The notes: generated from the letters alone by a model not told the origin. A DNA stretch of 64,000 nucleotides from Lentisphaeria bacterium (GCA_041690595.1 JAWLHB010000044.1:1-64000); one strand, 5' to 3'; shown: positions 17,319-61,545, counted from the stretch's first letter. Made by a program: numbers and translations.

Positions 17319-19817
17319 TCAGAATGGGAAGCTCCCCTCCGTCCGGTTGGCAAGCAGATTCGCGATCACCCAACTGGTCGCATCCTCCAGCGTCATCTCC
17401 TGACCGTTCAACGTCAGCGTTTCAGCCAGGATATTCGCGGTGAGGCTGGACTGCGTATAGGTGCCCCGGCCATTGCCCGCGATCCGGTGACGACGAATGA
17501 TCCCCGAATATGCAAAGGGCACCCGCTGCATCGCACCCGTTCCCAGCGCGTGGCTCACCTGCAGACCGTAGGCATTCCAGATCAGGTGCTCCCCATCCTC
17601 CGGCTGACTGAGCGCACCCAAGACCTGATAGCCACCGCCGATGCCGATGGTATACATATAGGTGTTTCCCGCCAGCCAATCCTCCACAGCATAATAGTCG
17701 GTGCTCCCTTGGCGCCAGGCAGGCAGCAGCCGCACCTGATGCGTCGCGTAATCGACCAGCAGGTAGCCGCTGTACGCAAAATTGCTCAACGCGTTGTTCC
17801 CAGCATGCAGCCCCGGCATCGAGAACCGGTACAGCGCCAGGGGACCATGCGAGGCAACGGTCGGTGGGGCGGCAAGCACCGCGGGCCATGCGTCCGCGCC
17901 AAGCGAGATCCCCAGACTCGTCGCCAGCTGCTCCAGCACCGTCTGGTAAGGTGTGTTGACCGCGTTGTAGCCCCTCGTCTCGTTCAGCAGGATCCGCGCC
18001 GCCAGCGTCGCCATGCCGAAGTGTTGCGTCGACGCATCACCCCAGCGCGATTCCCCCGAAAGACTCGCCGCCACATCTCCCACGCCCCGGCCGCCCAAGG
18101 CGATATTCCGGTGCAGCAACCCCAGCACCTGGTCATAGCGCCATGCATCGAGGTTGACTGCCGGTTGCGGCGCGTTGCCCTCCTCCAGACTCATGAACCA
18201 ATAATCCGACGTCCCGATACTGCTTGCGTAAAGGACTCCACTCTCCGTCCATGTGCGCACCTCACCCGGCCCGTTGCTGTACTTCACCAGCGAGGTGACT
18301 GTGCCCGTGTTCTGGTCGATCACCAGATAGCCATTCCCGCTACGCGCCGTCGCCCCAGTCCCATACTCATTCCCGCGCACCTGCAAGCTGTACAGCACCG
18401 TGCGCGTATTGTCCACGTTCAGAACCGTGATCTGGACGCTGTTGGAATCCCCGAAGCCGGAAGCCGACGCGCTGATCGTCACCACCACGTCCTCGTCCCG
18501 TACCCCATCCATCACGCCGGTGATCGCAAACGTCTCCGAAGAATTGCCCGCCCGAATGCGGATTCCCGCCGGTACCGACGCCTCTGTCGGATCACTGCTC
18601 GTCAACGACACCTGCAGTTCGCCATCCGTACCGTTGCGGCTGACCACCCCAGTCGCCGTGCGCCCTTCCTCCACCGTCGACTGCTGCAACGACAGAACCA
18701 GCGCCCCCGTGTCATTGTCGGTGATCGTCACTACTCCGGTCTGCTTCAGAATCGACGTTCCCGCGCTCGACTGCATCAAGTCTACATAGAAGATTTCTCC
18801 ACCGTCCTGAGCCGTGTCGTCATGGACGGTCAGCGTGATGCTCTTGCTCGTCTCACCCGGCGCAAAGATCAGAACCCCGGAGACCGCCGTATAATCGGCT
18901 CCCGCGGTGGCCGTATCGTTGCGGCTCTGGTAACTCACCTGCACGGAGCTCTGCATGGCCGGCGTCAGCGTCACCGTCAGTTGCCCCGTGCTGTCGCTCC
19001 CGGTATCGCTTTCCGCAATCGTGGTGTCGTCGATGCTGAAAAGCGGCACATCGACATCCGCAATCGTCATCCGCGCCGTGCTCTTCTCATAGACCACCCC
19101 CGTGTGCGACTTATTCATGAGGCGCACCCCGAAGAACTCATCCCCTTCCGCAATGGCGTCAGGGAGCAACTGTACCGAGATGACCTTCTCCGTCTCACCA
19201 GGCTGGAAGGTGACGGTACCGCTCGCCGCCACGTAGTCGTCCCCGGGCGTTGCCGTGGCGCCGGTGGGGCTATAGGTTTCCCAATCCGTGGAGATCGCGA
19301 ACTGCAGCGCGAGGGGTATGCTGACCGTCGTCGTGATCTGCCCCGAAGTTTCCAGAGCGCGCGCGTCGGCAACGCTCAGCCTCGCCGCGTCGGTATCCTC
19401 AATGTGCCCAATCGCCTCTCCGATGAAGATCGTCGCGCCGACCGCGTTGCTCAGGCTCACCCTGAACTGCTCCGGCCCTTCACCGATGCCGTCACCTACA
19501 ATGACGACGACCACCGAGTTGAAGGTCACTCCCGGTTGAAAGGTCAGGGTACCGCTCTTGGCCACATAATCGGCACCGGCAAGCGCGGTATCATCAATCG
19601 TTTCATAGTCAACCGTCACGATGCTCGCGCTGGCTTCATCCAGCCGCACGTGGAAGATCATCTGTACATCCTCCACATCACCTTCCACGACCGGCTCCGC
19701 GTCGTCTATGGAAACCTGAATCGCCATGGCGCCCATCCCACCGAAAAGGCACAGCAGTGCCAGCCAAAGATGCATGCGAAGCGTGAAGAGTGAATGAGTG
19801 GAAGGAATAGACTTCAT
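17319..19817 (-). CDS. Secreted Calx-beta repeat protein with an uncharacterised duplicated C-terminal domain
   Basis: GAGGAGG RBS before MKSIPS; signal peptide; three Calx-beta units (TA.AGADY...SGTLTF.PGET...); Ig-like domain; C-terminal ~360 aa homologous to the C-terminus of 51412-55368. Confidence 0.85.
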   Translation of the reverse strand: MKSIPSTHSLFTLRMHLWLALLCLFGGMGAMAIQVSIDDAEPVVEGDVEDVQMIFHVRLDEASASIVTVDYETIDDTALAGADYVAKSGTLTFQPGVTFNSVVVVIVGDGIGEGPEQFRVSLSNAVGATIFIGEAIGHIEDTDAARLSVADARALETSGQITTTVSIPLALQFAISTDWETYSPTGATATPGDDYVAASGTVTFQPGETEKVISVQLLPDAIAEGDEFFGVRLMNKSHTGVVYEKSTARMTIADVDVPLFSIDDTTIAESDTGSDSTGQLTVTLTPAMQSSVQVSYQSRNDTATAGADYTAVSGVLIFAPGETSKSITLTVHDDTAQDGGEIFYVDLMQSSAGTSILKQTGVVTITDNDTGALVLSLQQSTVEEGRTATGVVSRNGTDGELQVSLTSSDPTEASVPAGIRIRAGNSSETFAITGVMDGVRDEDVVVTISASASGFGDSNSVQITVLNVDNTRTVLYSLQVRGNEYGTGATARSGNGYLVIDQNTGTVTSLVKYSNGPGEVRTWTESGVLYASSIGTSDYWFMSLEEGNAPQPAVNLDAWRYDQVLGLLHRNIALGGRGVGDVAASLSGESRWGDASTQHFGMATLAARILLNETRGYNAVNTPYQTVLEQLATSLGISLGADAWPAVLAAPPTVASHGPLALYRFSMPGLHAGNNALSNFAYSGYLLVDYATHQVRLLPAWRQGSTDYYAVEDWLAGNTYMYTIGIGGGYQVLGALSQPEDGEHLIWNAYGLQVSHALGTGAMQRVPFAYSGIIRRHRIAGNGRGTYTQSSLTANILAETLTLNGQEMTLEDATSWVIANLLANRTEGSFPF

Positions 19818-20187
19818 GGCAGCCTCCTCGAAGTAGGTTATAGATGTGGCAATTGTCACGTTTTGCGGAAGTGATAACCCTGCGCCCTTCCTCCAGCGAC
19901 GAACCGAATCCGATCATGCAGTACCAGATTCAGCCTTTCCTCTAGTCTGGCCCCACCAGCTGCCTCCACACAAATCATCCGTGCCTCCCAACCCCTGCAC
20001 AACCCACCTTCTTCATCATCTTCCTGAGGCTGAAATACTATCAGAATAGCCCTTCACAATTTTCTTCTCCGCCCACTTCAAATTTTTCCAACCCCCTCGC
20101 ACATTTCCCCGCCGTCGCTCGAAACGTTCATCGCCCGGCTGACACCTGCGCCCCCCCGCCGCTGGTCCTCCGCCGTAAATTGGTCCC

Positions 20188-20239
20188 TTGACAACATAGT
20201 TGGCCCCGATATATTGTGTTTATTCACTACAACTATAAT
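20188..20239 (+). promoter_or_regulatory. Sigma70-type promoter region of the GntR gene
   Basis: TTGACA (20188-20193)-16-TATATT; a second TATAAT at 20234; inverted pair ATAGTTG/CAACTAT overlaps it. Confidence 0.5.
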
Positions 20240-20265
20240 CTCTCTCTACTCAGAACAACGATGCC

Positions 20266-21483
20266 ATGAAGGTCAACTCGGCAGTCCGGGCATTTCGGCC
20301 CCAGCGGCAGCGCAGCCTGCGGTCACAGATCACCGATGCCGTGCGTAGCATGGTCACGACCGGCCAACTGCGGCCGGGTGACCGCCTCCCTTCAACCCAG
20401 GCGCTGGCGGCAGAGTGGGATGCGCAGGTTCGTACCGTCCACGACGCCCTCACGCCACTGGTCAAGGAAGGGCTGCTCGAGCGCACGCCCCGTGTGGGCA
20501 CCTTTGTTCGCAGCCAGGAGGAACGGCTCTCCCATGTCGGGATTTACGTCTGCAACTCGCTGTGGACCACCCCCGCCTTCACCTTTGGCCGCGCCGTCTG
20601 CAAGGAGCTGCACGATCAACTTGCCGGCCTCGGCATTGCCGACAGCGTCTGGGTCGATCCAAGATCGCCTGCCGAACAGTCAACGGCATGGGACGAGCTG
20701 GGGCGCGCCGCCGGCGAGCGTCGGATTCAGGCACTCCTTGTGCCGCTCTCCGACTCCGCGCATATTCAATGGCTGGACAAATTGCCCGTGCCAGTCGTCT
20801 TCCTCTCCACTCAGCCCCTACCCAACAAGGTTGGATTCGACAGCCGCCAATGGGTGGAAACCGCCCTCACCTTGCTGCGCGACCAGGGCTGCCACACCGT
20901 CGGTGCCATTTCGGCCAACAAGGTGCGCTTGACCGCCGCTGGAGAAGCCATCGAAGGCCACACCGAATTCTACCGGCAACTGCGCGATGTCGCCAAGCAG
21001 CTGGGGCTCGAACTCCGCCCGGAATGGATTCTCCACGCCCCCCCGGAAGGCTTCGGCCACAATGGCGGGGCCGTTCAACAGTTCGGCTTCGAGGCGATGT
21101 CCCACCTCTGCAAACTCGACAAGCGACCGGACGGCGTGGCCATCTATGAAGACGTCACCGCCAGTGGGGCGATCATGGCAGTCATGCAGGAGCGCATCGA
21201 CGTCCCCCACGATCTCAAGCTCGCGCTGCACCGCAACGCGGAAATCGGTCTGTTCTGTCCCTTTCCCGCCGCCTTCGTCGATGTCCGCGTTGCCGATGTC
21301 GCCGCGGCGATGATTGGCCACATGCGTCGGCTGTATGATGGCGTCGAGGTGCAATCCCTGGACGTTCCGTACCATGCCGTGCCCGCCTCGCCGTCAGCGT
21401 CGCGCGGCGCCGACCCTGATCAAATTGCTACCGCCATTCCATCATTCAGCGAACTCGATTACGTCACAAGGGCTGATGCGTGA
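20266..21483 (+). CDS. GntR-family regulator with LacI-type sugar-sensing domain (AraR-like architecture)
   Basis: LRPGDRLPSTQALA...LVKEGLLERTPRVGTFV; C-terminal RPDGVAIYED...IDVPHDL. Confidence 0.9.
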   Translation: MKVNSAVRAFRPQRQRSLRSQITDAVRSMVTTGQLRPGDRLPSTQALAAEWDAQVRTVHDALTPLVKEGLLERTPRVGTFVRSQEERLSHVGIYVCNSLWTTPAFTFGRAVCKELHDQLAGLGIADSVWVDPRSPAEQSTAWDELGRAAGERRIQALLVPLSDSAHIQWLDKLPVPVVFLSTQPLPNKVGFDSRQWVETALTLLRDQGCHTVGAISANKVRLTAAGEAIEGHTEFYRQLRDVAKQLGLELRPEWILHAPPEGFGHNGGAVQQFGFEAMSHLCKLDKRPDGVAIYEDVTASGAIMAVMQERIDVPHDLKLALHRNAEIGLFCPFPAAFVDVRVADVAAAMIGHMRRLYDGVEVQSLDVPYHAVPASPSASRGADPDQIATAIPSFSELDYVTRADA

Positions 21484-21545
21484 CGAGAGCTGGGCAGGAA
21501 TAAAGGTGCCCACTTACTCGTGCATCCACCAAAAGGCAACGCAAA

Positions 21546-22340
21546 ATGAAACGAACAATTCCCGCGTTCGACACGGTCTCCGATAAGTGGCTGCCTGCCG
21601 GTCCCAATTGCAGGACTCGCTTCACCCTCATCGAATTGCTGGTCGTTGTAGCCATAATAGCCATCCTGGCCTCCATGTTGCTGCCCGCCTTGACCAAGGC
21701 GCGCACAAAAGCCCGATCCATCTCCTGCCTGGGCAATCTCCGTCAAGTCGCGATGGCCTGCCATGGGTATGCCGACGACTTCACCGACTACCTGCCCCCC
21801 GCCGGCGGCCAGTCTCCCGACTCTCCCACCCATCCGAATGCCAGCCAGGGATTCGCGGCCTGGACAGCCTTCGCCGGCGCGCAGATCTACACGGATTACT
21901 CCATCACCGACCTGCGCTTCGGCGGCAACACCTACAATTGGGGCATTGCGCCGAACTGGATCATGCGCTGTCCGGTTCATCTCATCGGCAATCACAGCTA
22001 CGGCATCAATGGCACCACCTGGGTCGACTCCACCGACAGCTCCTGGAATATGTTCGAGCGCGGCGTCGCCCGCGTCAAGCGCAATCGCCTGCTCACCCCC
22101 GACCAGACCTTCATGGTCGCCGACGCAAGACTATATCGTTTCTACGACCCCAACTGGATATGGGATGCCGACATGAATGGCGATTTCTTCTTCGGCGCCA
22201 GTCGCCACGACATGCGGGTCAACATGAACTTCGTCGACGGCCATGCCGAATCCAGGACATTTCGCGAGATTCCCCATTACGGACACTCCCAGGGCGCGGG
22301 ACATCCCCTCGACAAGAACTTCTGGGGAAACAACTATTGA
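21546..22340 (+). CDS. Prepilin-type N-terminal cleavage/methylation protein with H-X9-DG motif (DUF1559-like)
   Basis: [29 protein letters not shown]...[24 protein letters not shown]. Confidence 0.93.
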
Positions 22341-22415
22341 TCGTCTCTTTGTAAGATCAGCCAACCCGGTGCCACCCCTTCTGATCATCGACACCACCAT
22401 AGGAGCCCCCCAATC

Positions 22416-25400
22416 ATGCGGAGAACGACACCACTGAAGCACCAGGCGACCCTGCCACGCCTCTTCTGGGTTGCCACTTTGGCCCTCATCCTGCCGGTTC
22501 TGGGCGAAGCTCCGGCGACCATCTCGCTGACCATCGCCGAGCCAGGCCAAGTCTCCGCCACGGGGCCGGAATTCGATATCGCGCCAAACTCCCAGATCTC
22601 ACTGCAATTGACGTACGTCGGTCGGAACCTCGGCCGCTCCATGTCCCGCGAAGTGGCCAAATCCGGCGGCTCCACATGGTTGAAAATCACAGTGATCTGG
22701 CTCGATGCGGAGGGCAACGACGTGGATGTGGCCCGCGAAAAGCTCGCCTTCCCACCCCTCAAGCAAAGCTGGGAAGTGGCGGACGGCTCCGGCCGCCCCG
22801 TCGAAGTCGCCGTCAACCTCTCCTCCCCCGGTGATGCCGCAAAGGCACGCGTCGATTTCACCGTCCTGCGCGACCGCGCCATGGCACCAGGCGGCGCGGA
22901 CATTGGCGACATCCGCATCACCCCCGGTCAAGTCCAGGAAAGCGGCATTGCTCGCATCGTCACCGGCCCTCCGGACGCAGGCCCCGTTACCTCACCCCCA
23001 GAGGGCGTCTCCTTCGGCGAGAATCTGGCCCCCAATTCAACTCTCGAAGAGGGCGAGCAGACGCCCTTGGGCTGGCGCATTGTCGGCGACAACAGCGGTG
23101 GTGCGGCGCGCTGGATCGACGGCGGCGCCTATTCCGGCCGGCGAGCCTTCCGCATTGACGACCGCGCCCCTTATCGACGCAGCTGGGGTGAGGAACCCGA
23201 TCCTCAGGTACTCATCCCCGGCAGCGAACCGCAAGCTAACTACGGCTTTGGTCGCGAGGAAGTCTATGCCCGCTGGGTGAGCGATCCCGTCCCCGCGGAA
23301 CCGAACGCACTCTACATGACCATGGCCGCTTACCATTACGGCAATCGGCACGATCCCAGCCGCAACCTCATGAATCCCGTGCGCATTGAATTTCTGGATG
23401 CCAACCAGCGCCTCATCCCGCTCCCCCATTGGGCCAACAGCTTGCCGGATGCCATGGAGATTCTTCATCCCCCAGGATGGACCCCCATTGTCGGCAAACC
23501 CGTGCCAGCCCCGCGCAACGCTGCCTTTGTTCGCTTGGCGATTGTGCTGCAACACGCCTATTACGAGACCATGCAGGGCCCGTTGAACAAGAATGCCCTC
23601 AATCCCGGTTTCGTGGTCGTCGACAATATCGCCCTCTTCAAGACTGCCACCGAACGCCCGGCTGATGATCCCGGCCTGACCCGTGTCACCCGCGAGCGAG
23701 CCTTTGCCGAGACACTCGCCGCCGGCGGCGTTCCCTTTGTCCCCAGCAGCCCGGCCCATCGCCCAAACAGTCTCACCGCCGAGAGCCATTCGCCTATCGG
23801 TGGCGGTATTCTCCTGAGTGGCCAGTCCGACGACCTCGGCCTCATTGTCCGGGACAAGATCGGCGACCGCCGTCACCTGAACGTCGCCTACGACCTGCTC
23901 GACGCCACCGGTCAGTCGGTACATCGGGAGGAGGCAGTGGGAACCATCGAACCTTATCGGGAGGCGGTCCTTGCGCTCGACGTACCCGCCGACCTCCCGT
24001 TGGGGCCCTACACCATCGCCTACATCCTGCGCGAAGGCGATGTTACCGCCCACGCCGGGGAAAGTCGCCTCGCAGTCGCCATCGACCATCCCGCCGATCT
24101 GGCCGAACGCCGCCGCATGGATTATCCCTTTGCCACCTGGGCCCATCGCTTCAAGGAATTCTTCGTCAACGACCATCCCGAAGAGTTCGCGCTGTTGGGA
24201 GAGAGCTGTCGCTACATGGGCGCAGGCAAGCAGGGCTTCGTCGTCTCCTTCTATCCCGAGCACTATCTCGCCATTGCCAACGACACCGCACGGCGCGCGA
24301 AGATCGAGGCCGACATCGCGGAAAGGCGGGCCTTGATGGTGGCGATGGCAGAGCACGATGTCTTCAACCTGCCCCTCCTCCATCCCGTGCCGCCCCTGAC
24401 CGACGAAACTCGACCCCGCGCCGTGGAGCTGGTCACCATGCTTGTCAATGGCCTCGCCGACCTCTCCCTCGTCTGGACCTACGGCGATGAGCAGATTCAC
24501 GGCGGCATTGAAGTCGCCCAACTCGATGAAACCACCCGCGCCGACGGCAGCATCATCATGAATTGGGGCTACCCAGGCTCGGCCCGCACCTATATCCATG
24601 ACTATCTCCTCCTGTACGATACCATGAAGAGCGCCCAGCCCGATGCCATCTTCGGCTTCAATTCCGCCAGCCACGGCAACGGCAACGTCATGCGCCTCTT
24701 GCTGGCCGCGGGCGCACGCGGCAAGTTCGACATGCTCGGCGTCAACATGTTCATGAGCCCCTTCTCCATCTGGCCGGCTACCCTCGAAGTCATGCGCGAG
24801 CACGGCATGGACGATGACGCTATCCATTTCTTCGGCCACAACCTCGGCGGCATCATCCGTACCGACCCCCGCCTTACCGGCAGTCAGCGCCTTGAAGGCG
24901 AACTCCACGATGCCCTCTCCCTGCCCAAACAATGGACCCAGATCCTTCATTCCTTCCCCCAGCTGACCTTTGTGCCCCAGTGGGATCCCGGTCTCGGCAA
25001 CGATCAGGCCAGCTTTACCTTCAACCAACGAGTCAAGCCCGCCTTCTCCAGCTACGCCGCCATGACCCGCCTGCTCGGCGCGGGCCGCTTCACCGCCAAG
25101 CACCTTTTCCCCGGCGCCGAGCTCTACGTACGCGAACGCAGCGCACGTCCCGGCATCGTCGGCATCGCCTGGGCCAACAGCGACAACCCCGTCACCATCG
25201 AACTGGCCGTGGGCGCCGATACAGTCACCGTCGCCGATGTCTGGGGAAATACCCGCGACATGCAAAGCGACGACGGCGTCCTGGAGCTTACCGTCACCGA
25301 TTGGCCCCACTATATCGTCGGCGCCACCAAGCTCGAACCCGCCCCATCCGTGCGCATCACCCTCGATCAGGCCAGCACAGCGGCCGGCAAGCCCCAGTTC

Positions 25401-26849
25401 GCCATCACGGTGAATAACGATACCGCACATGCCATCGGCGGCCACCTGACCCTCGATCCCCGCACCGCCGCCACCGTCGCCCCACAACGCCTCGCCGTCG
25501 AGCCCATTCCGCCAGGCCAGACCCGCCGCTACACCGTCACGCTCGCCATCCTCGAGCCGACCATGGACCAGCCGGTGCCGTTGCACGTTCGTTTCGCGAC
25601 CGACTACAGGAACCGCGTTTACGAAACGACTACCATGCTCAATTTCCACTTCGCCCCCCGCGTCCAGACCCCGCCGATCATCGACGGTGAACTCGACGAC
25701 TGGAGGCTCGAAGCCACGCTGGCACTCGTCGCCGATCGTGAGGAACAGCTCTTCCGTTACGAAAACAAAGGCCCATGGGCTGGCCCCGAGGAACTCAGCG
25801 GCAAGCTCTGGCTAACCTGGGACAACCAGCATCTCTATTTCGCCGCCAAGGTCCGCGACGGCGGCCAGACCATCGCCGACACCCCCGAATGGCTATGGGC
25901 AGGAGACAGCATCGAGATGCTTATCGCCCCCATGGGCAGTCGCGAACGCGACAGCGCTTATGCCCAGATCGCCCTCGGACTGGTCAAGGGTGGCCAATCC
26001 AGCGTTATGCGCTACCATGGCCCCGGACCCAATGGCCCGCTGCTCGCGGCAAAGGTGGCCGTCAAGCGGGTTGACGGCGGTTATCTCTACGAAGCTGCCG
26101 TCCCCTGGCGTGACCTCACCGACAACCCCGCCTTCAAGCCTCGAGCCGGCCATCCCATCACCACCGCCTTCGGCTTCAACGACAAAGACGCCGGAGTGCG
26201 CATGATTTCCTGGTACGACCGCGTCACGTACAAGGATCCTGCCCGCTTCGGACAGATTGTCCTCACCGCGCCAGTTGACGACACCCCATTCCCGCCGCCG
26301 CCCGGAAACTTGGTACCCAACGGCGATTTCGAGGATGCCGCCCTGCCACCAGCCGACGACCTGTCGGATTGGAGCACCACCTTCCGGCCCGACCCGCTCG
26401 GCAATCCCAGCGCCATCGCCTACGTGAGCACGGACGGCGCCTACCAGGGCAAGAGTCTGGTCATCGAGCGCCTGCATGTTCACAATCATGCCGAAGTCCA
26501 CGCCTTCCGCGTCCCCGTCCAATCTGGGCGCCGTTATCTCGTCCGCGCGATGATCAAGGCGCCGATGCGCCAGCCAGCCGTGCACCTCTCCTTCCGCAAC
26601 GCCGCACAAGAGGCCATCCAAGACCCGCTCACAGTCATCACGCTCACACCCGCTACCGACTTCAACTACAACAGCCTGATGCTCATGAACACCGATCGCG
26701 TCACCGACCGCGCCCGCTTTCACCCAGCCGCCATCGCCGTCGATGCCCCGTCAGGCGCCACCACTCTGTGGCTCAGCTTCAGCTACAACTGGGCTTCCGG
26801 CAAAGCCCACTTCGACAACATCGAAGTCATCGAGCTGCCGCTGCCGTGA
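22416..26849 (+). CDS. Large secreted multidomain glycan-binding/GH39-like protein (CBM4-like, clan GH-A-like barrel, CBM9/DOMON-like)
   Basis: Signal peptide; NLAPNSTLE and NLVPNGDFE CBM starts; WTYGDEQ; KPAFSSYAAMTRLL; IIDGELDDW...WDNQHLYFAAKVRD...GDSIE. Confidence 0.7.
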   Translation: MRRTTPLKHQATLPRLFWVATLALILPVLGEAPATISLTIAEPGQVSATGPEFDIAPNSQISLQLTYVGRNLGRSMSREVAKSGGSTWLKITVIWLDAEGNDVDVAREKLAFPPLKQSWEVADGSGRPVEVAVNLSSPGDAAKARVDFTVLRDRAMAPGGADIGDIRITPGQVQESGIARIVTGPPDAGPVTSPPEGVSFGENLAPNSTLEEGEQTPLGWRIVGDNSGGAARWIDGGAYSGRRAFRIDDRAPYRRSWGEEPDPQVLIPGSEPQANYGFGREEVYARWVSDPVPAEPNALYMTMAAYHYGNRHDPSRNLMNPVRIEFLDANQRLIPLPHWANSLPDAMEILHPPGWTPIVGKPVPAPRNAAFVRLAIVLQHAYYETMQGPLNKNALNPGFVVVDNIALFKTATERPADDPGLTRVTRERAFAETLAAGGVPFVPSSPAHRPNSLTAESHSPIGGGILLSGQSDDLGLIVRDKIGDRRHLNVAYDLLDATGQSVHREEAVGTIEPYREAVLALDVPADLPLGPYTIAYILREGDVTAHAGESRLAVAIDHPADLAERRRMDYPFATWAHRFKEFFVNDHPEEFALLGESCRYMGAGKQGFVVSFYPEHYLAIANDTARRAKIEADIAERRALMVAMAEHDVFNLPLLHPVPPLTDETRPRAVELVTMLVNGLADLSLVWTYGDEQIHGGIEVAQLDETTRADGSIIMNWGYPGSARTYIHDYLLLYDTMKSAQPDAIFGFNSASHGNGNVMRLLLAAGARGKFDMLGVNMFMSPFSIWPATLEVMREHGMDDDAIHFFGHNLGGIIRTDPRLTGSQRLEGELHDALSLPKQWTQILHSFPQLTFVPQWDPGLGNDQASFTFNQRVKPAFSSYAAMTRLLGAGRFTAKHLFPGAELYVRERSARPGIVGIAWANSDNPVTIELAVGADTVTVADVWGNTRDMQSDDGVLELTVTDWPHYIVGATKLEPAPSVRITLDQASTAAGKPQFAITVNNDTAHAIGGHLTLDPRTAATVAPQRLAVEPIPPGQTRRYTVTLAILEPTMDQPVPLHVRFATDYRNRVYETTTMLNFHFAPRVQTPPIIDGELDDWRLEATLALVADREEQLFRYENKGPWAGPEELSGKLWLTWDNQHLYFAAKVRDGGQTIADTPEWLWAGDSIEMLIAPMGSRERDSAYAQIALGLVKGGQSSVMRYHGPGPNGPLLAAKVAVKRVDGGYLYEAAVPWRDLTDNPAFKPRAGHPITTAFGFNDKDAGVRMISWYDRVTYKDPARFGQIVLTAPVDDTPFPPPPGNLVPNGDFEDAALPPADDLSDWSTTFRPDPLGNPSAIAYVSTDGAYQGKSLVIERLHVHNHAEVHAFRVPVQSGRRYLVRAMIKAPMRQPAVHLSFRNAAQEAIQDPLTVITLTPATDFNYNSLMLMNTDRVTDRARFHPAAIAVDAPSGATTLWLSFSYNWASGKAHFDNIEVIELPLP

Positions 26850-26953: not shown

Positions 26954-26998
26954 CTGACGACAGTGGGCATGGTACCCCAAAATGTGTCTGTCTACTCC

Positions 26999-27041
26999 TT
27001 GACAAGAGACCGTTCGCAGATAATTATTAGATAATTATTAG
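26999..27041 (+). promoter_or_regulatory. Promoter with an 11-bp tandem direct repeat (candidate GntR operator)
   Basis: TTGACA at 26999 followed by AGATAATTATT x2 (27018-27039), each copy holding the palindrome ATAATTAT. Confidence 0.6.
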
Positions 27042-27094
27042 GATCATGAACATGGGCAGACCCAAAATGTGGTCTTGGTTTTCTTTGCAGGATT

Positions 27095-28180
27095 ATGAGC
27101 ATGGCCAGATACAAGGAAATCTCCGCTGTCCTGCGGCAACGCCTGCTGAGCGGTGCGTTGAAGCCGGGTACCGTGCTGCCGACCACTCTCCAGTTGGCGG
27201 AGCAGTTCGACACCAGCGCCTTTACCGTCCAGATGGCGGTGGCGCCGCTTGTCGAGGAAGGACTCCTGGAGCGACGGCGCAACCTCGGCACGGTCGTGCG
27301 GCACAATCCAGCCCTGTTGAGCTGTGCCGGCATCTATGCCGGTAGCGGACTGCTGGACGAGCGCGAGTTCGCCTTCTATCGCGAGCTTTGCCGCCAACTG
27401 CAGCGGCAATTGAACGAAGCGGACGTACGCAGCGTGCTGTATATTGATACGCGGCCGCGGGAGGAACTGCACGCGCCTTTGCCGGAGCTGGTCCAAGCCA
27501 TCGACAGTCGGCGCGCGCAGGGACTCTTCGTGGCGCTCACCGACAAGGTCAGTTCGGGATGGCTGAGGCGGCTGCCGGTGGCAACCTCGTTCGTCACCAG
27601 CGATACCAGCGTGAACCCCGTCGGCTTCGACGCGACGCAGATGGTGCGCCTGGCATTGCGACGGCTCCACGAGCAGGGGTGCCGGCGCATTGGCGCTATC
27701 AGCTCCATCAGGATGCCCGAAGATATCCACCATCCGTATTTCCGCTTCTACGAGGCATTTGTCTCGACCATCGCCGACTTGGGACTGCAGACTCGCGATA
27801 GCTGGGTGATCTCGCCGACCGAGCCGGTGACCAGTCGAGAGCGCTACGGCTATGCGTCCTGCAAGGCGCTCTGGCAGCAGGCGGAGCGCCCGGATGGGCT
27901 ATTCGTTTACCCGGACGTCGCCGCGCGCGGCGTTACGATGGCGCTGCTGGAGCTTGGCGTGCGCGTACCCGACGTGCTGAAGCTGGTCTGCCACCGCAAC
28001 AGCGGTGTCGACTGGCCCTGCCCCCTGCCCATCAGTTGGGTGGAATCGGATGTCGCTCGCTGTGCCGCCGAAATGGTGGCCCAGGTCCGGCAACTGAAGG
28101 CCGGGGGCGCCATCGCACCGGTGTATCTGCCCTACATTATCCGCAAGGAACACCGCCACGAAGAACAGGAGCACGGATAA
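27095..28180 (+). CDS. GntR-family regulator with LacI-type sensor domain (paralogue of 20266)
   Basis: LKPGTVLPTTLQLA...LVEEGLLERRRNLGTVV; RPDGLFVYPD...VRVPDVL. Confidence 0.9.
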   Translation: MSMARYKEISAVLRQRLLSGALKPGTVLPTTLQLAEQFDTSAFTVQMAVAPLVEEGLLERRRNLGTVVRHNPALLSCAGIYAGSGLLDEREFAFYRELCRQLQRQLNEADVRSVLYIDTRPREELHAPLPELVQAIDSRRAQGLFVALTDKVSSGWLRRLPVATSFVTSDTSVNPVGFDATQMVRLALRRLHEQGCRRIGAISSIRMPEDIHHPYFRFYEAFVSTIADLGLQTRDSWVISPTEPVTSRERYGYASCKALWQQAERPDGLFVYPDVAARGVTMALLELGVRVPDVLKLVCHRNSGVDWPCPLPISWVESDVARCAAEMVAQVRQLKAGGAIAPVYLPYIIRKEHRHEEQEHG

Positions 28181-47146: not shown

Positions 47147-50100
47147 GTGCATACTACCCCGTACACAACCGATGGCAGCCTGTCGGATGGCATCGTGGCT
47201 TTGCTGAACGAAGGCCGATGCGAGACCGCCCGCCGACTCTGTCGCCGATACCTCGCAAGCGCGACCGGAGAGGAACGCGACGTGCTGCTCCTGCTCCTCC
47301 ACCAGGCCTGCCGCTTCCTCGGCGATCAAGCCGCTTGCCTCGACGCGCTTGCCGGCGTCGAATCGGCCGACCAAGATCGGCAGCTGGAGGTCGTGCTGCG
47401 CCGGGCCGAGGACTTCAAGTATTTCGGCACCGGCATGTTCTACCGCGAATCCGAGGCCTGCGCGCAGGGCTATTCACATTGGGAATACTTCGCGTCCATG
47501 CAGAAGAACGCCCTGGAGCAATTGGAACGGGCCCGCGATCTGGCCGACACCGAGGCCCGCCGTCGGCGCCTGACGCAAGCCATGCGCTTCTGCGGCGAAG
47601 GGCAGTTCAGCGAGGTCGACAAGTCCCACAACAACATCGTCGCCCCAGCTTCACCCGAGCGCGCAGGCAGTTGCACGCTCCAGGGCACGCTCTCCTTTCC
47701 CGGCGGGATGCCCGCCGGCAATCTCACCGTCACCCTCGGTCTGCAAGTTGCGCTACTGCCGCCCGACCCCAGGCGATACACCAATCTGAACCTCGAAGTC
47801 TACGAACCCGATCACAGCCTCCTCGAAACCCGTTCCTGCCAGACCGACGACAGGGGCAGGTACTGCTTCACACAGCTTCCGGCGGGGACGCACGAGTTTC
47901 TCGCCGTCAACCTGGATCCTCAGACCAACCCGGTAGCCGTGCGTTTCCTCGCCCACCATATTCTCCTGCACGATGGCGACACCATGGAGCTGAATGCCGA
48001 CATACTGGCTTGGCAAAGCTCGCCCTCTCGCCAGACGAACGTCTGCCTGCCCGAAACCATCGTCTGGCGCGATCAGGATGCCACGTGCGTGGCGACGGAT
48101 GTGCTGCGAAATCCATTCGATTATGCCTTCCCGAGACAGCTTCTCGAAATCGACCTGCCGCCGGGCATCGACGCCGATCCCGACCGGCTCATCCTCCTGC
48201 TCAGCGACTGCCTGGACACGCCCGTGCCCTTTCAGCTCGCCGGTCAGAAGCTCCTCTATTTCTGCGACCTGCCCCCACGCCAGGACCGGATGGCCGGACT
48301 CTACCGCCTCCATCGCGCACAACATGCGATGGACGAGTCGCCCCTGAGAATCGTCGAAGCTGGCGAGGGAAGCGCGCTGATTTCTACCGGCAAGGCGCTC
48401 TTTCGCGTGCCTTGGGGCGACGGGCAGGACCTCCTGCCGCCTATCGTACAGGTGAAAGGCGGGGATGACGAATGGCGCGGCGAAGGGCGTCTTCTTCTTC
48501 CCGAAGGCGTCACCCTGGCGAGCCGCTCCACCACCCTGATCGAGCAGGGGCGCCTGCGCCTCCAGATCGAGATCCGCTACTTCCTGTCGAACGAGATGAC
48601 CTACAGCTTCAGGCTCACCTTTCACCGCGACGAGGAGTATGTCCTCGTACATGAGATTTGCCCCTGCTTGCCGGGCGCCGGCTTCCAGTTCAGCCTGGCG
48701 GAGTTCATGCATGGCCGGTACTTCCTGAACGAAGGCCCCGAAGGCACACGGAAGCGTCTGTGGGGCCCACTGACGCCCGGCGACCGCACGCTCGGGCTGC
48801 TGAAGGAGACGATCTCCTTCGGCGTGCCGCTGGAAGGCTTCGGCTTGCTGATGAGCAAGGACTGCATGGACGAGAAGGATTGCGTCGGCGTCTTCACCAT
48901 CAGGCGCGGCGAATGGATCGACCGTGCCTTCGAGAAGGTCTGCAATGGCCCCGCGAAGGCCGACTGCAGCCATGAACAGGAATGGCCATACCCGGAGATG
49001 ATTGGCTCCACCTACTCCATGATTGTCGCCGAAACCGCCGACAACGACTGCCGCTTCCGCTTCGATGCCTTTGACGGCGAACGCCACTGGGGATTGATGG
49101 TGTCGTCCTTCGCCAGGAATGACGGCCGCTTCAAGGCGCTCTCGGAGTACCAGCACAAGAACTCCTGCCCTCGCCTGCAGGTCTTCAAACAGTGGCGTCT
49201 CGACCTGCCCGACAGCCTGACGCGCCCCTCGCTCCTGGTCCAGGCCGAGAGGCTGCCCGAGCTGCGCCGCCGCAAGGACGACCCGCGCTTTGCCGCCACC
49301 TGGAAACGGATTGTACAGATGCGCCCCAATGGCGGCGGGCAATGGGCCCCAAGCGCCGCCGGCGCCTTTCGCGCCATGCTCGACGCGGATCCGGCGGCGA
49401 TCTGGAACAAAAAACGCGAGCTGGTCGCCATTGCCGGGCCGCACGCGCGCAGTGTGCTGCTGGGCCGCGACAAGACCCCCGAATACAGCCCCGTCGCCTC
49501 CCGCGCGGTAACCCCCTGGATCGAGGACTATGACCTGATCGTCGCCACCGGCGTCTTCGAGCCGGCGGAAGAGCAGCTCGTGCGAGCTCACCACATGCTC
49601 ATGGGCCACATGTACCTGCGGAAGGACTTCATGAACTGGACCTTCAACGCGCGCAACGCCAACTTCGAAGCCGACCGAGTCGATACCGTGGGCGTCGCGG
49701 GCATCTGCTTCCGGGACAATCCGGATGGCGTCACCTTCATCCGCCACGCGCAGTCGCGCATGGCGCGGATCATCGAGACCTACTGCACCCCGGGCAGCGG
49801 CAAGTGGTACGAAAATCCCGCCTGCTACTACCTCACCTCGCTCAAATGCTGGACCAATCTCTTCCTCCACATGGCCCACCATGGTCTGATGAAGATCGAG
49901 GACGTTCCGCGCATGAAGGAGTTCCTGCGGTGGGGCATCTTCCTCCTGACTCCGCCCACTCCCGACTACGAGCAGATGCGCGACGGCGTCACCCCCGGAG
50001 ACTTCGCCGGGAAGCGCCGCATCGCACCCATCGGCGATCATGCCCGCATCGGCCCAACCATTCCGGAAAACTATGCCCTCATGGCGGCGCAATACCGGGT

Positions 50101-51355
50101 CGCCGATCCCGAGTTTGCCGACTTGCTGCGCTGGGCCTATCACGCCTCCGGCGCCGATGGCGATTACCACAACCAGTACCTGCTCTTCTTCGCCAATGCG
50201 GATGAATGGATGCTCTCGCCGCCTGCCGTCAATCCCGCCCTGCCCAGCCGCAGGCTGGAGGGCTTTGGCGCCATCCTGCGCACCAGCATGCATCGCCCCA
50301 ACGAGTCCTGCCTGCTCCTGAAACTGGGGCCGGGCGGCTATCGCTACCACAATACCGAAGGCAGCATCCTCTTCTTCGCCGATGGCAAGCCGCTGATCTA
50401 CGATGGCGGCGAAGCCGGCGAAACCTGGCGCCACTCGACCCTCTCCTTCCACGACACCCATACCATGCTCGCCCCCGGACACGTCGAGCGCTTTCAGGCC
50501 TTCTCCGGCCTCGGCTTCATCCAGGGCGTCAGCCCCAGGGCGCTCAATCCCGGCGAACCGAACTACCTCAACGATCAGTGCAGCCCAGAATCGATCGCCA
50601 TCGGCGCCGCCAATTACCACGAACCCAATCCGGCTGTCTCGCGGTCGCTCTTCTGGGTCGAAGACGACTACCTGATCATGCACGACGCCTTGAATCTCGA
50701 CCCGCAAATAGCCACGCACTGGCATCTGCAGGTGGTCGCCGACAGCCACGCCGAGTGCGCTTCCGGCTGGCGCTTCAAGGGCAGATTCGGCACCGACCTG
50801 CAGGTCGTCATGGCGAACCCGCACGATGCCGTCACGACCATCGCGCAGCTCCCCATTCTCGACGCACGCCCCCTTGAAGAACGCTTCGCCATGCGCCACC
50901 TTCAGGTTGCGGGCAAGAAAGGCACCCGCGATTATCTCGCCGTCCTGCGCCCCCTGCCGGGGACGCGTGGCGAAATCCAGGCAAGCGTACTCTCCTGCCA
51001 CGACCGGACTATCGGCGTCCGCATCGCAGGCTGGGGGATTGACGATACCCTGTACGTTTCCCGCGAGTCCTTCTCGCATCGGCAGGGTCATATCGTTTTC
51101 CGTGGCCGCTATGCCGCCGTCCTCGAACGGCCGGAGTGCCTGCGCATGTACCTGCTTGATGGCGACGCCTTGCAATACAAAGATATCGTCATCTCCAGCG
51201 ACGGCCCCGCCGTCAGCCTGGTGCAGGATCGTCGGCTCGTCACCATCGCCGCGACCGGCAAAGGAGGTATCGTCATCACGCAAGGCAACGAATCCAGGAG
51301 CTTCACCGTCGATGGCGAAGCCCGATGCCTGAGCACATGGGAGAACCGCGCATGA
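47147..51355 (+). CDS. Heparinase II/III-like polysaccharide lyase with N-terminal extensions
   Basis: GTG start abutting the upstream stop; WYENPACYY; IGDH; LEGFGAILR; KLGPGGYRYHNTEGSILFFADGKPLIYDGG; RHSTL; no signal peptide. Confidence 0.65.
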   Translation: MHTTPYTTDGSLSDGIVALLNEGRCETARRLCRRYLASATGEERDVLLLLLHQACRFLGDQAACLDALAGVESADQDRQLEVVLRRAEDFKYFGTGMFYRESEACAQGYSHWEYFASMQKNALEQLERARDLADTEARRRRLTQAMRFCGEGQFSEVDKSHNNIVAPASPERAGSCTLQGTLSFPGGMPAGNLTVTLGLQVALLPPDPRRYTNLNLEVYEPDHSLLETRSCQTDDRGRYCFTQLPAGTHEFLAVNLDPQTNPVAVRFLAHHILLHDGDTMELNADILAWQSSPSRQTNVCLPETIVWRDQDATCVATDVLRNPFDYAFPRQLLEIDLPPGIDADPDRLILLLSDCLDTPVPFQLAGQKLLYFCDLPPRQDRMAGLYRLHRAQHAMDESPLRIVEAGEGSALISTGKALFRVPWGDGQDLLPPIVQVKGGDDEWRGEGRLLLPEGVTLASRSTTLIEQGRLRLQIEIRYFLSNEMTYSFRLTFHRDEEYVLVHEICPCLPGAGFQFSLAEFMHGRYFLNEGPEGTRKRLWGPLTPGDRTLGLLKETISFGVPLEGFGLLMSKDCMDEKDCVGVFTIRRGEWIDRAFEKVCNGPAKADCSHEQEWPYPEMIGSTYSMIVAETADNDCRFRFDAFDGERHWGLMVSSFARNDGRFKALSEYQHKNSCPRLQVFKQWRLDLPDSLTRPSLLVQAERLPELRRRKDDPRFAATWKRIVQMRPNGGGQWAPSAAGAFRAMLDADPAAIWNKKRELVAIAGPHARSVLLGRDKTPEYSPVASRAVTPWIEDYDLIVATGVFEPAEEQLVRAHHMLMGHMYLRKDFMNWTFNARNANFEADRVDTVGVAGICFRDNPDGVTFIRHAQSRMARIIETYCTPGSGKWYENPACYYLTSLKCWTNLFLHMAHHGLMKIEDVPRMKEFLRWGIFLLTPPTPDYEQMRDGVTPGDFAGKRRIAPIGDHARIGPTIPENYALMAAQYRVADPEFADLLRWAYHASGADGDYHNQYLLFFANADEWMLSPPAVNPALPSRRLEGFGAILRTSMHRPNESCLLLKLGPGGYRYHNTEGSILFFADGKPLIYDGGEAGETWRHSTLSFHDTHTMLAPGHVERFQAFSGLGFIQGVSPRALNPGEPNYLNDQCSPESIAIGAANYHEPNPAVSRSLFWVEDDYLIMHDALNLDPQIATHWHLQVVADSHAECASGWRFKGRFGTDLQVVMANPHDAVTTIAQLPILDARPLEERFAMRHLQVAGKKGTRDYLAVLRPLPGTRGEIQASVLSCHDRTIGVRIAGWGIDDTLYVSRESFSHRQGHIVFRGRYAAVLERPECLRMYLLDGDALQYKDIVISSDGPAVSLVQDRRLVTIAATGKGGIVITQGNESRSFTVDGEARCLSTWENRA

Positions 51356-51411: not shown

Positions 51412-54400
51412 TCAGCGCTGGTCAGTGACCAGTGCGCCGGAAGGCAGCCGGTTCACGATCAGCCATTCCTTGGCTTGATCCAGGCTGAAACGCTCCTTGA
51501 CGAAGGTAATCGTCTCGGCCGAGGCCGTCGCGCTGAAGGTGCCGCTGCTGTAGATGCCTTCGCTGCAGTGCAGGGCCACGTGCTGACTCTGCGTGCCACT
51601 CAGCTGCATTGCCAGCGAGACCTGTTCGCCACCGATGGTGACCTGGCTCACCGTGCCGTACAGCAACTGATACTGGAAGGCATGATTCGCGCTGATCACC
51701 GCGCTCTCGCCCAGTTCCTGGCGCGCGCCGATGAGGGCAATCCGGCTGCTGCCCAAGGTCACGGTACCGGCGAGATTCACGCCACCGCGCCAATCCTGCA
51801 CATGGTAGCGCCACTGATTCCCTTCGCGCCACGCAAAGAGCGCTTCCGCCTCATGCGTCGCGCGATCGATCAGCAGGAAGCCCGCGCCGGCGTTGCCCAG
51901 GATCTCACCATTGCCCGCCTGGAAGCCGCGGCTGTTCAACCGGTAGCAGAGTACTCCTTCGTCCGTCGAAACGGAGGCCGATGGCGCCACTTGCGGAACA
52001 TGCGCCGACGACGACGCGAATTCCGGCTCGCCGATCGCGTCCAACGAAAGCCCCAGTTCGGCCGCCAGACTCTCCACGATCTGCGCATGACTGCGCGCAT
52101 TCTCATTCGCCTCGATCGTCTGACGTGACATCAGCTTCGCATTCAGCGACGTCAGCACCACGAAGCCATCTCCGGAGAGGTTGCCCGCGCGGCGCATGCC
52201 CTGCAGCGTCAGGGGAACCTGCCCCGTGACGCCGCCGCCGATGGCGATCTTCGTCCGGGTCAGCATTCCCGTCATCTCCGCGTGGTGATGCTGCCCCTGG
52301 CTGGCGGCCGGCATGCTTGTCACCGCGCCATTGGTCAGGACCCAGTAGCGTGTACTTGGGTCTGTGGCGATGGTGTACCAGCAGCCCGGCTCGCTGTCCC
52401 ACTCTTCCACATTACCGCTGCCATCGCCCGTGGTGGTGAGCAGCGTCGTGAAGCCGCGAAGCACATCCACAACCAGCGCGCCGCTGCGCGCGATGGGCGT
52501 CGTGGTGCCGCCATACCGATAGCCGCGCTCCGTGAAGGCATAGATCACGCTCTGCTCTTCCTGCACCAGTTCGTAGTGGACTTTCAGGTAAACATCGCTG
52601 TTCACCTGGAAACCGATGAGCCGGTCGGTGCTCTCCACGAAGCCGCTCCACCGCACGAAGCGCATCCGGCTTTCGCCCGTACCGATGAACTCCGGTGCTT
52701 CGAGGTAGACGTTCGCGCCGCGCGCCACCGTCTTCACATACGAGGTCGTGCCCGACTGACACGTCGATGATTCGATCCGCACGCCAACCGGGTCCGAGTC
52801 GACCGTGATCGTCTGGATCGGGGCCAACACATAGTGCGCCTTCACCGTCGCGTCCGCGTTCACCTGGAAACCAATCTCGAGATTCGTGCTCTCGACCAGG
52901 CCGCTCCACCGGACGAAGCGCATGCGCTCTTCGCCCTCGCCGATGAACTCCGGCGCCTGCAGGATCACATTCGTCCCGGTCGCCACTGTCTTCGTATAGA
53001 GCGTGGTTCCGGAGTGGCAGGTCGGCGATTCGATACGCACGCCTCGCGGATCCGAATCCACCGTCAAGGTGCGAATCGTCGACAAGGCGACATAGTGGGC
53101 CTTCACCGTTGCGTCCGCATTCACCTGGAAACCAATCTCGAGGTTCGTGCTATCCACCAGACCGCTCCACCGGACGAAGCGCATCCGGCTCTCGCCCTCG
53201 CCGATGAATTCCGGGGCCTGCAGGATCACATTTGTCCCGGTCGCCACGGTCTTCGTATAGAGCGTGATGCCAGAATGGCAGGTCGGCGATTCGATCCGGA
53301 CCCCGCGCGGATCCGAATCCACCGTCAAGGTGTGAATGATCGCCTGCTCGTAATGCGCCTTCACCGTCGCATCCTCGTTCACCTGGAAACCGATCTCCAG
53401 GTTCGTGCTCTCGACCAGGCCACTCCACCGGACGAAGCGCATCAGGGTATCATCTTCGCCGATGAACTCCGGCGCCTGCAGGATCACGTTCGTCCCAGTC
53501 GCCACGGTCTTCGTATAGAGAGTGGTTCCCGAATGGCACGTCGGCGACTCGATACGCACGCCGCGCGGATCCGAATCAACCGTTAAGGTGCGGATCGCCG
53601 ACAGCGCCACGTAATGCGCCTTCACGGTCGCATCCTCGTTCACCTGGAAACCGATCTCCAGGTTCGTGCTCTCGACCAGACCGCTCCACCGGACGAAGCG
53701 CATGCGGTCGTCACCTTCGCCGATGAACTCCGGAGCCTGCAGGATGACGTTCGTTCCAGTTGCCATGGTTTTCGTGTAGAGCGTCGTCCCTGAATGGCAC
53801 GTTGGCGACTCGATTCGGACGCCGCGCGGCTCGGAATCCACCGTCAGCGTGCGGATGATCGTCGGTTCGTAGTGCGCCTTCACCGTCGCATCGCCATTCA
53901 CTTGGAAGCCGATCTCTGGATTGGTGCTTTCCACCAGCCCACTCCACCGGACAAAACGCATCGCTGACGCCCCTTCGCCAATCAGCTCCGGCGCCTGCAG
54001 GATCACGTTCGCTCCATGCGCCACCGTCTTCGTGTACAGGGTCGTCCCCGACTGGCACGTCGGCGATTCAATCCGGACACCGCGCGGATCGGAATCCACC
54101 GTCAGCGTATGGATAACCGGCACCAGCTCGTAGTGCGCCTTCACCGTCGCGTCCGCATTTACTTGGAAGCCGATCTCTGTATTGGTGCTCTCCACCAGCC
54201 CACTCCACCGGACGAAACGCATCAGGCCGGAGCCTTCGCCGATGAATGGCGGCGCCTGCAGGATCACATTGGCGCCGTGGGCCACCGTCTTCGTGTAGAG
54301 CGTCGTACCCGACTGGCACGTCGGCGATTCGATCCGCACCCCGCGAGGATCGGAATCGACCGTCAGCGTATGGATAACCGTCACCCGCTCGTAGTGCGCC

Positions 54401-55826: not shown

Positions 55827-56549
55827 CTATTGGTTGCCCCAGGGCGCTTCGTTCACGCGCGCAGGATGCTGGGAGGTCGGCAGCGAGAGCAGCAGGGGCG
55901 TGTGTGTCTCAACATGCCCGTCGCAGTAAAGGATATTGCCGGTTCCGTCGTGCGGGAAGCGCACGCTGGTGTACTGCGGATGGAACCTGAAGAATCCGAG
56001 GTTGAGCGGGTGGGCCGGATCGGCGGTTTCACCAAAGGCAATCTGTGATGAAGCCTTGATGATGCTCGTCTGCCGGCGGTAAGGCGGCTTGCTCGAAAAC
56101 ACCTTTTCACCGCCGATGCCCCACGGGTTCATCCCGTAGTGGGCAAATTCGAAGGTGTTCCAGATTGTGCCGTAGATCGGCTTCATGGATGGACACGACA
56201 GGAATCCGTCCGGCGAAATATGCTGGAACGGTTTCTGGCGAATTGCCGGTTGCAACTCGTCGATCATGATCTTCTGCCAGAACCTCGCCCCTTGCGAGCT
56301 GGACCAGATATTGTCCCACATGGCTGAATGAAAGGCCGGCAGGAAGCCGTCGTTGGCATCGCAATACATCTCCCATGCAAGATGCAGCTGCTTGAGGTTG
56401 TTGACGCACGATATCCGCCGCGCCGCCGAGCGCGCCTTCCCCAGCGCCGGCAACAGCATGCTCGCCAGAATCGCGATTATCGCCACGACCACCAGAAGTT
56501 CGATCAAGGTGAAAGACCGACGGATATGGTGAATTCCTGGGCTGCGCAT
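55827..56549 (-). CDS. Prepilin-type H-X9-DG (DUF1559-like) protein
   Basis: [38 protein letters not shown]...[24 protein letters not shown]. Confidence 0.93.
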
Positions 56550-56642: not shown

Positions 56643-56658
56643 GCATTAACGTTAGTGA
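56643..56658. promoter_or_regulatory. Candidate LacI-family operator 1
   Basis: GCATTAACGTTAGTGA: near-palindrome with central CG, upstream of the pilin gene. Confidence 0.65.
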
Positions 56659-61543: not shown

Positions 61544-61545
61544 AG

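Follow-up and report, generated by a model that had tools for sequence, protein, structure and literature searches.

The first 64 kb of contig C44 (72,656 bases) of a Lentisphaeria bacterium (GCA_041690595.1; genome of 8.1 Mb, rated 97% complete), hereafter the window, carry three consecutive plus-strand genes separated by gaps of 62 and 75 bp. These encode a 405 aa regulator with a GntR-type helix-turn-helix (HTH) and a LacI-type sugar sensor (20266-21483; PF00392, E 4e-15; PF13377, E 3e-8), a 264 aa DUF1559/H-X9-DG type IV pilin-like protein (21546-22340; identified by profiles, N-terminus and model) and an exported multidomain glycan protein of 1477 aa (22416-26849; profiles and models), here called the giant. 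The order regulator, pilin, exported glycan protein is the rule across the genome, and the window locus would be one copy of a sugar-regulated glycan-utilisation cassette with a large exported glycan protein at its end. A first-pass annotation of the window had described this locus with its 62 bp gap and its 1477 aa protein with carbohydrate-binding module (CBM) and glycoside hydrolase (GH) features, as well as a second pilin divergent from a LacI-DUF4838-DUF4434-GH2 run; our gene calls and Pfam agree with both descriptions, as does the literal H-X9-DG motif with the first.

Genes were called with our own hexamer model (5616 genes, with approximate start sites). A profile of the pilin N-terminus retrieved 205 open reading frames (ORFs), 202 of which mapped to called genes and 176 of which scored as DUF1559 class, a class with some atypical members, one of which neighbours a secretin. 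A second, iterated profile retrieved 133 LacI/GntR-type sensor regulators (Pfam gave 121 matches). A regulator was the upstream neighbour of 66 of 175 pilins (61 on the same strand and five divergent; background 2.0%) and the downstream neighbour of 6 of 176. Seen from the regulator, a pilin was found at +1 in 61/132 cases, at -1 in 11/130 and at +2 in 15/132, the median distance from regulator stop to pilin F+1 being 46 bp. When neighbouring pilins were merged into 140 clusters, 85 had a regulator within three genes. The first non-pilin gene downstream was long, with a median of 793 aa (n = 130) against 352.

The nature of these next genes was addressed by Pfam scanning of 60 of 101 regions drawn at random, which held 73 next genes, the window's own among them. 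A named GH, polysaccharide lyase, CBM or sulfatase domain was present in 24 and DUF4838 in 11 more, so that 35/73 were glycan-active, while 16/73 had no Pfam match. Only 6 of 120 control genes (20 runs of six genes far from any pilin) were glycan-related; the Fisher p values for this enrichment (5e-7 and 2e-12) are overstated because the controls are consecutive genes and not size-matched. Enrichment of DUF1559 genes beside regulators and carbohydrate-active enzymes (CAZymes), which the first-pass annotation had supposed, is thus present on both sides of the pilin. Local profiles place 17/66 DUF4838 genes, 10/34 GH123N-like genes and 24/77 CBM9-bearing genes directly after a pilin (background 2.4%). 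The hexosaminidase families GH163 and GH185 have DUF4838 as their catalytic domain, according to the available part of PMC10570127. By a crude hydrophobicity call a signal-peptide-like stretch was present in 84 of 124 next genes, compared to 28.5% of distant genes and 7/133 regulators, and was lacking in 40/124.

Conservation of the cassette was followed through 14 other loci with a full-length homologue of the giant (L039/L040 counted once; L031 and L032 share a genus). A pilin lies no more than two genes upstream in seven of them (L030-L034, L145, L154); a partial homologue with no pilin (L035) and fragments (L038, L041, L043, L044) were left out. In L145, a record of another phylum with the title of a Phycisphaeraceae metagenome-assembled genome, the order regulator, pilin, giant is kept together with the same Asp-Glu/Asn sites discussed below. 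Locus L033 (G182:C312:36000-54000) carries at least three tandem pilin-giant pairs, with homologues both of the 1477 aa protein and of the GH42-like paralogues found at 28-43 kb in the window, and has one of the pilin heads most similar to the window's. The giant nearest to ours (P0003) and the nearest named pilin (P0012) are each on a 5,893-base JGI contig, probably the same one given the equal sizes. A first scan of a collection of genome contigs found no relative.

When each pilin of the genome was compared with its nearest paralogue, the genes following the two were homologous in 20 of 138 cases, against a mean of 1.3 and a maximum of 8 over 2000 shuffles. Even so, the genes that follow are unrelated in 13 of 16 pairs of very similar pilins, and many partners with strong homology (500-620 bits) stand behind heads that are unrelated. 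Sequence divergence is faster in heads than in partners (giant 65% vs. head 48%; 36% vs. undetectable). This pattern suggests co-inheritance of pilin and partner with shuffling. A strict pairing of one pilin with one enzyme was rejected, similar heads fronting unrelated partners and homologous partners carrying unrelated heads. Such duplication and shuffling would also be seen if pilins and glycan genes were hitch-hikers sharing mobile, expanding regions without any functional link, and the facts that the pilin link is not obligatory and that other pilin contexts occur (glycosyltransferases, extracytoplasmic function (ECF) sigma, PilM, ApbE) fit such an origin. We nevertheless consider it very improbable, since the pilin is fixed at +1 and a median of 46 bp behind its regulator, the three-gene order recurs in the other-phylum record L145, and one palindrome is common to both sides of the divergent pilin-LacI pair.

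The same data bear on an alternative in which the pilin is an export or display adaptor, i.e., a substrate-specific pseudopilin that lets a shared type II secretion system (T2SS) recognise, push out or hold at the surface the giants of its own operon. The excess of signal-peptide-like next genes, the placement of DUF4838, GH123N-like and CBM9-bearing genes but not sulfatases after pilins, the 20/138 homologous next genes of closest paralogues and the tandem pairs of L033 are all consistent with it, as are a full T2SS operon in the genome and the finding of no common C-terminal anchor in the large partners inspected (40/75) and no PEP-CTERM match in the genome. Set against this are the strongly homologous partners with unrelated heads and similar heads with unrelated partners, the faster divergence of the heads, the existence of homologous giants with no pilin, and pilins that precede enzymes without a signal peptide. 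Known T2SSs, moreover, export many substrates with one pseudopilin set. The 40/124 signal-less next genes and the 13/16 similar pairs with unrelated partners fit a link to the substrate better than one pilin per exported protein, and we regard the export adaptor as unlikely, although it is the strongest of the alternatives to a glycan-binding fibre subunit.

The first pilin has a 25 aa leader ending in Arg, F+1, E+5, Cys36 and a Cys-Pro, a variable aromatic head and an H-X9-DG beta-hairpin. Both window pilins are members of the family described by DUF1559/SBP_bac_10 (PF07596), N_methyl (PF07963, TIGR02532) and H-X9-DG (TIGR04294) in the Planctomycetes-Verrucomicrobia-Chlamydiae (PVC) bacteria. 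PF07596 and TIGR02532 are above cut-off in both; in the first the N_methyl match (E 5e-4) is just under the Pfam cut-off and the DUF1559 N-terminus gives E 2.7e-8. The literal H-X9-DG is present in both, with TIGR04294 above cut-off for the second (55827) only and not listed for the first at E <= 0.05. The type IV pilin features F+1, E+5 and a hydrophobic N-terminal helix are present. Across the class F+1 and E+5 are found in 175/176 members, Cys36 in 174/176 and Cys-Pro in 162/176, and the two cysteines probably form a disulfide. H-X9-DG is literal in 74/176 and found in 133/176 when a spacing of 7-12 is allowed. With a median mature length of ~230 aa the copies in this genome are short, and their match to the model is confined to its first 30-60 positions.

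A model of the pilin built from a 71-row alignment, moderately confident with a mean predicted local distance difference test (pLDDT) of 71 and below 50 in the head loops, shows a 50-residue helix and places H-X9-DG in the last beta-hairpin, which suggests a structural motif; the variable part is an insertion of ~130 residues. Aligned over residues 1-229 and compared to 48,161 chains, it matched PilA4 best (root mean square deviation 3.2 Å over 116 residues) with a Z of 5.8, in the range that the structure tool calls common. The top 19 rows were all pilins or pseudopilins, those beside PilA4 including a type IVb pilin, ComP, PilV and EpsG; Foldseek gave no match at E <= 0.001. The prepilin-like gene of the first-pass annotation therefore appears, with moderate confidence, to encode a type IV pilin fold.

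Gly stands at -1 in only 15/176 members, the two window pilins having Arg and Ser, and this is one point for another alternative, in which DUF1559 proteins do not polymerise but act as periplasmic binders or sensors anchored in the inner membrane, holding oligosaccharides or enzymes near the membrane (the 'SBP_bac_10' reading). Most loci have no solute-binding protein gene, as this alternative would expect, and in the available parts of PMC2754498 and PMC4807772 DUF1559 is called a solute-binding family. In the secretion clusters on C28 and C53, however, the pseudopilins are just as variable at position -1 (Ala, Gln, Arg, Arg; Gly, Arg, Arg), so that this position gives no sign of missing cleavage; Arg at -1 was accordingly rejected as proof of no cleavage. 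The near-invariant F+1, E+5 and 50-residue helix are assembly features that a plain anchor would not need, and the modelled fold is that of a pilin and not of a solute-binding protein. An anchored binder is in our view distinctly improbable, more so than an export adaptor.

The variable heads are rich in Asn and in Trp+Tyr. The latter two together amount to 10.3%; the corresponding figures are 7.1% for 12 further pilin-like proteins, 6.6% for a set of 177 exported CAZyme-like proteins and 4.5% across the soluble proteome. In the two closest orthologues of the first pilin the aromatic C-terminal segment is almost unchanged. Aromatic heads and a kept C-terminal segment point to a specific ligand, which may be sugar or protein alike.

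No transporter or pilus-assembly Pfam match was found in the genes from 15 kb to the contig end (72.6 kb), and none of the 22 called genes in this region has more than one predicted transmembrane (TM) segment. The reported absence of SusC/SusD, TonB, ATP-binding cassette (ABC), major facilitator superfamily (MFS) and pilus-assembly genes is thus upheld by Pfam for 15-64 kb, and none of the four further genes to the contig end gave a transporter match. Genome-wide there are four TonB-receptor matches, none within three genes of a pilin and none on the window's contig; SusD has no match in this 97% complete genome and no adjacent susC/susD pair was found. ABC permeases (31 matches), MFS proteins (22 matches in 16 places) and SSF transporters (two genes) are likewise few for 133 sugar-type regulators. 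By a TM-count proxy, 10 of the 500 genes in runs that follow pilins encode polytopic proteins, compared to 5.1% of genes overall (p 4e-4). Named transporters within three genes of pilins (ABC 4/31, MFS 3/16, SSF 1/2; background 16%) showed neither enrichment nor clear depletion. The transporter-less pattern holds for the window loci to the contig end but not everywhere: beside pilin loci at C5:254483-259216 (L179) and C8:142983-147391 (L178) there are ABC permeases fused to solute-binding domains.

Assembly machinery, which was expected elsewhere in the genome, is indeed encoded there. Eight of the 20 PilB/GspE-class matches are full-length; secretins gave six matches, and a single prepilin peptidase was found. 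C53 carries a complete T2SS-like operon, pseudopilins included, C9 a PilC-PilT-PilB-PilB cluster with no pilin gene beside it, and C2 and C7 PilM-secretin clusters. The PilT-like ATPase of C9 (356 aa) has no tetracysteine motif and a degenerate retraction motif. The DUF1559 class also has a direct genetic connection to assembly machinery, one of its pilins standing first in a secretin-PilM-PilB cluster at C7:125517-133481 (L175). Several further PilT/PilU-like ATPases on C3, C4 and C10, stand-alone or in tandem, lie away from any pilus cluster; PilB-like genes on C6, C10 and C60 are in unrelated contexts; and C9:140885-148787 resembles a Tad/Flp cluster, judged by gene sizes and N-termini. Both secretion and retractile systems being available, the presence of machinery does not choose between them.

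Cassette order and enrichment, the modelled pilin fold, the scarcity of outer-membrane receptors and the presence of machinery are the computed observations to be explained, and we give an even chance to an explanation in which the pilin is a locus-specific glycan-binding subunit of a shared fibre. It is favoured by the receptor-less loci, the invariant assembly signature, the heads resembling binding surfaces and the loose pairing with any single partner. Gene order and operator-like sites suggest that sugar would release the regulator so that pilin and enzymes are made together. The pilin would then be cleaved by the single prepilin peptidase and built into a fibre through its near-invariant N-terminal helix by machinery encoded elsewhere, and its variable aromatic head would bind the glycan of the locus and keep the cell on its substrate. 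In the most speculative step, which we regard as doubtful, a PilT-type motor would retract the fibre through a secretin and pull chains towards periplasmic enzymes.

Several points weigh against the glycan-binding fibre subunit, in addition to the relaxed -1 position and the moderate quality of the pilin model given above. No pilin was seen in the other seven of the 14 giant-homologue loci (our own C73, L039/L040, L042, L037, L146, L148 and L153), of which L037, L146, L148 and L153 have only 0.7-1.4 kb of upstream DNA; the first-pass inference that each locus supplies a pilin subunit for a shared machine is partly borne out but too strong as put. Pilin similarity tracks regulator similarity weakly (4/66 vs. 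0.55 expected; Spearman 0.07). The preference of pilins for exported partners suits an export role, sulfatases, mostly without a signal peptide, not being enriched after pilins (3/74). Aromatic heads suit protein binding equally with sugar binding, and the second window pilin has only 6.4% Trp+Tyr. The loci also lack an inner-membrane uptake route, so that the lack of transporters is not specific to the outer-membrane step. Finally, 20 H-X9-DG loci from other genomes were compared (42 of 156 flanking ORFs scanned with Pfam). Of the eight loci from the same class, five have a regulator no more than two genes away and five a glycan domain in the next gene, but in the 12 loci from other classes the profile detected no LacI/GntR-type regulator; AraC is present in one of these and a CBM9 gene in one. 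The cassette is biased towards certain lineages, and H-X9-DG pilins serve other purposes too.

The giant itself is composed of a Sec-type signal peptide, N-terminal CBM-like beta domains, an Ig-like domain, a GH39-like barrel, a CBM9-like domain (CBM9_1 by Pfam, residues 1121-1284; 25776-26267, plus strand) and a C-terminal CBM-like domain, and no anchor was seen in it. Residues 421-1000 (23676-25415, plus strand) were modelled as Ig-like domain, (beta/alpha)8 barrel and beta-sandwich with a pLDDT of 93.5, and the best match was the GH39 structure 5jvk (E 2e-21, 15% identity). As in GH39 and clan GH-A (5jvk, PslG), barrel and sandwich are present and an acid/base Glu follows strand 4: in the profile alignment E692 of the pair D691-E692 (24486-24491) falls on the 5jvk WNE motif. 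Unlike in GH39, the nucleophile Glu after strand 7 is absent, N809 (24840-24842) falling on the 5jvk TE motif. Among 49 aligned rows the nucleophile site is Glu in 37, Asn in 11 and another residue in one, and Asp-Glu at the acid/base site is found in 10 of the 11 Asn rows (the other having a gap) and in none of the 37 Glu rows. The Asn rows all belong to one clade, which suggests one event.

In GH20-type catalysis two carboxylate residues are adjacent. The giant, in which an Asp precedes the acid/base Glu and the usual nucleophile is missing, may be comparable to GH20, GH123, GH163 and GH185, and a second carboxylate is described for substrate-assisted hexosaminidases in the available part of PMC10570127. 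We predict, at slightly less than an even chance, a substrate-assisted N-acetylhexosaminidase-type enzyme, which would fit the many DUF4838, GH123-like and GH20 partners of pilins; a non-catalytic glycan binder is a less probable but serious candidate. The giant's sequence matched none of the GH20 and GH123 models, and our search of the literature, mostly outside the subscription journals, found no account of a nucleophile-less GH39. In a paralogue of the giant on C73, which lacks a pilin, Thr-Glu and Glu are retained. Predicting a complex between the pilin head and residues 200-980 of the giant was uninformative (scores 0.01 and 0.00) and was used neither way. The full proposal, in which a retractile type IV fibre takes up polysaccharides, more than 100 interchangeable and separately induced lectin-like pilins, one per glycan locus, set its specificity, and the giant founds a clan GH-A branch switched to substrate-assisted catalysis, is possible but on balance improbable.

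With regard to regulation, a sigma70-type match upstream of the first regulator (TTGACA-16-TATATT, 11/12; 20188-20215, plus strand) is a consensus match only and is weak alone, the region having five matches compared to 1.8 in shuffles. In the 300-bp interval that separates the second pilin from LacI, an unbiased search found one palindrome in two copies, a score reached in none of 500 shuffles. One copy is upstream of each divergent gene: the candidate LacI-type operator at 56643-56658, ~95 bp upstream of the second pilin, and the second copy at 56789-56804, ~47 bp upstream of the likely LacI start. Elsewhere in the genome the pattern, which was derived from these sites, recurs with two or fewer mismatches at two other sites only. 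The promoter scan found no minus-strand promoter for the second pilin. For neither of the two GntR-type regulators did a shared palindrome in the upstream DNA rise above shuffles (307 and 259 of 500 reach the score). At 26975-27075, upstream of the second of these, a candidate operator consists of an 11-base tandem repeat at the -10 region and two copies of a 12-base motif.

That second GntR-HTH and sensor regulator (27095-28180, plus strand; Pfam), which has its own promoter match at 26999-27027 (promoter scan), is 35% identical to the first and heads a run of six large genes (28264-51355, plus strand; Pfam and paralogy) with no pilin next to it. The proteins starting at 28264 and 33513 and the ORF ending at 43475 are paralogues with weak GH42-type or LamG matches. 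Pfam gave no family match for 37543, 43550 or 47147, and sequence searches of the PDB with 33513, 43550 and 47147 were uninformative. The last (47147-51355; 1402 aa) has a helical N-terminus, no signal peptide and a weak heparinase-II/III-like lead only (score 0.83). The claim of 44 kb of glycan genes is generous, given the three genes without a family match and the repeat surface protein starting at 51412. No RNA holder is listed for 20200-26849.

The second DUF1559/H-X9-DG pilin (55827-56549, minus strand; profiles) is followed not by a hydrolase but by that surface protein, with Flg_new_2 repeats (51412-55368, minus strand). It shares a C-terminal region of ~375 aa (29% identical) with a Calx-beta-repeat surface protein (17319-19859, minus strand), each of the two flanking a pilin cassette; the shared region is a possible anchoring or secretion domain. 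On the other side the LacI-family regulator (56852-57889, plus strand; profiles) is followed by DUF4838+FGE-sulfatase-like (with signal peptide), DUF4434 and GH2 proteins (57938-64000, plus strand; Pfam), and the run goes on past the window through four more genes to the contig end, one GH95, one GH9-like and two unknown. In the first of these proteins (57938-61543) the FGE-sulfatase-like domain is fused C-terminally to the hexosaminidase-like DUF4838 domain.

The cassette shares with the Bacteroidota SusC/SusD polysaccharide utilisation locus (PUL) a sugar-sensing regulator clustered with glycan-degrading proteins and many repeats per genome, and it may work like a PUL. It is not a Sus-type PUL, however, having no SusD, only four TonB receptors in the genome, cytoplasmic LacI/GntR-type regulators and a pilin in the head position. 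Like type IVa pili and T2SS pseudopilins, the window pilins have a class III-type N-terminus, a long helix and a pilin sheet; unlike type IVa pilins they have a relaxed -1 position and a 130-residue variable insertion, and their genes lie with catabolic operons and not with machinery. A functional analogy may be drawn with Neisseria ComP, a minor pilin which binds DNA as a subunit of an uptake pilus. A precedent is MUL2 of Akkermansiaceae, also PVC bacteria, where a type IV-like pilus with PilM and secretin, which also form a cluster on our C2, has been proposed to act in attachment to and uptake of complex glycans (PMC13174399). MUL2 consists of a single four-gene locus whose pilin is of archaeal type, whereas the ~176 pilins here are variable and dispersed, each with a regulated locus to itself. 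The available portions of other papers describe dextran-binding pili-like fibres in planctomycetes (PMC5394234) and pili in chitin adhesion (PMC11131199). Papers naming DUF1559 give, in the parts available, a function unknown or solute-binding and no link to glycan operons or a pilin fold; our search for a DUF1559-glycan link, mostly outside the subscription journals and in main texts, found none, and proteomic tables may already show induction of the genes.

Few gene families of PVC bacteria are larger than DUF1559. The 176 members found here agree with the expansion stated by the first-pass annotation and resemble planctomycete counts, with 68 paralogues in P. limnophila and 74 in R. baltica in the available parts of PMC10632474 and PMC2754498. 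How polysaccharides pass the outer membrane with few TonB receptors is a standing question, the uptake system being called uncharacterised in the part of PMC5394234 available. The fixed order of regulator, pilin and exported enzyme makes both this question and the role of DUF1559 directly testable, and the pilin serves as a marker of unannotated glycan proteins such as the next genes without a Pfam match. The nucleophile-less GH39-like clade is a candidate for a new enzyme mechanism. The recurrence of the cassette suggests that DUF1559 pilins supply sugar-specific fibre subunits where other bacteria use outer-membrane transporters; if true, this would identify the sugar-binding fibres of PVC bacteria and add a third glycan import route beside the SusC/D and ABC systems.

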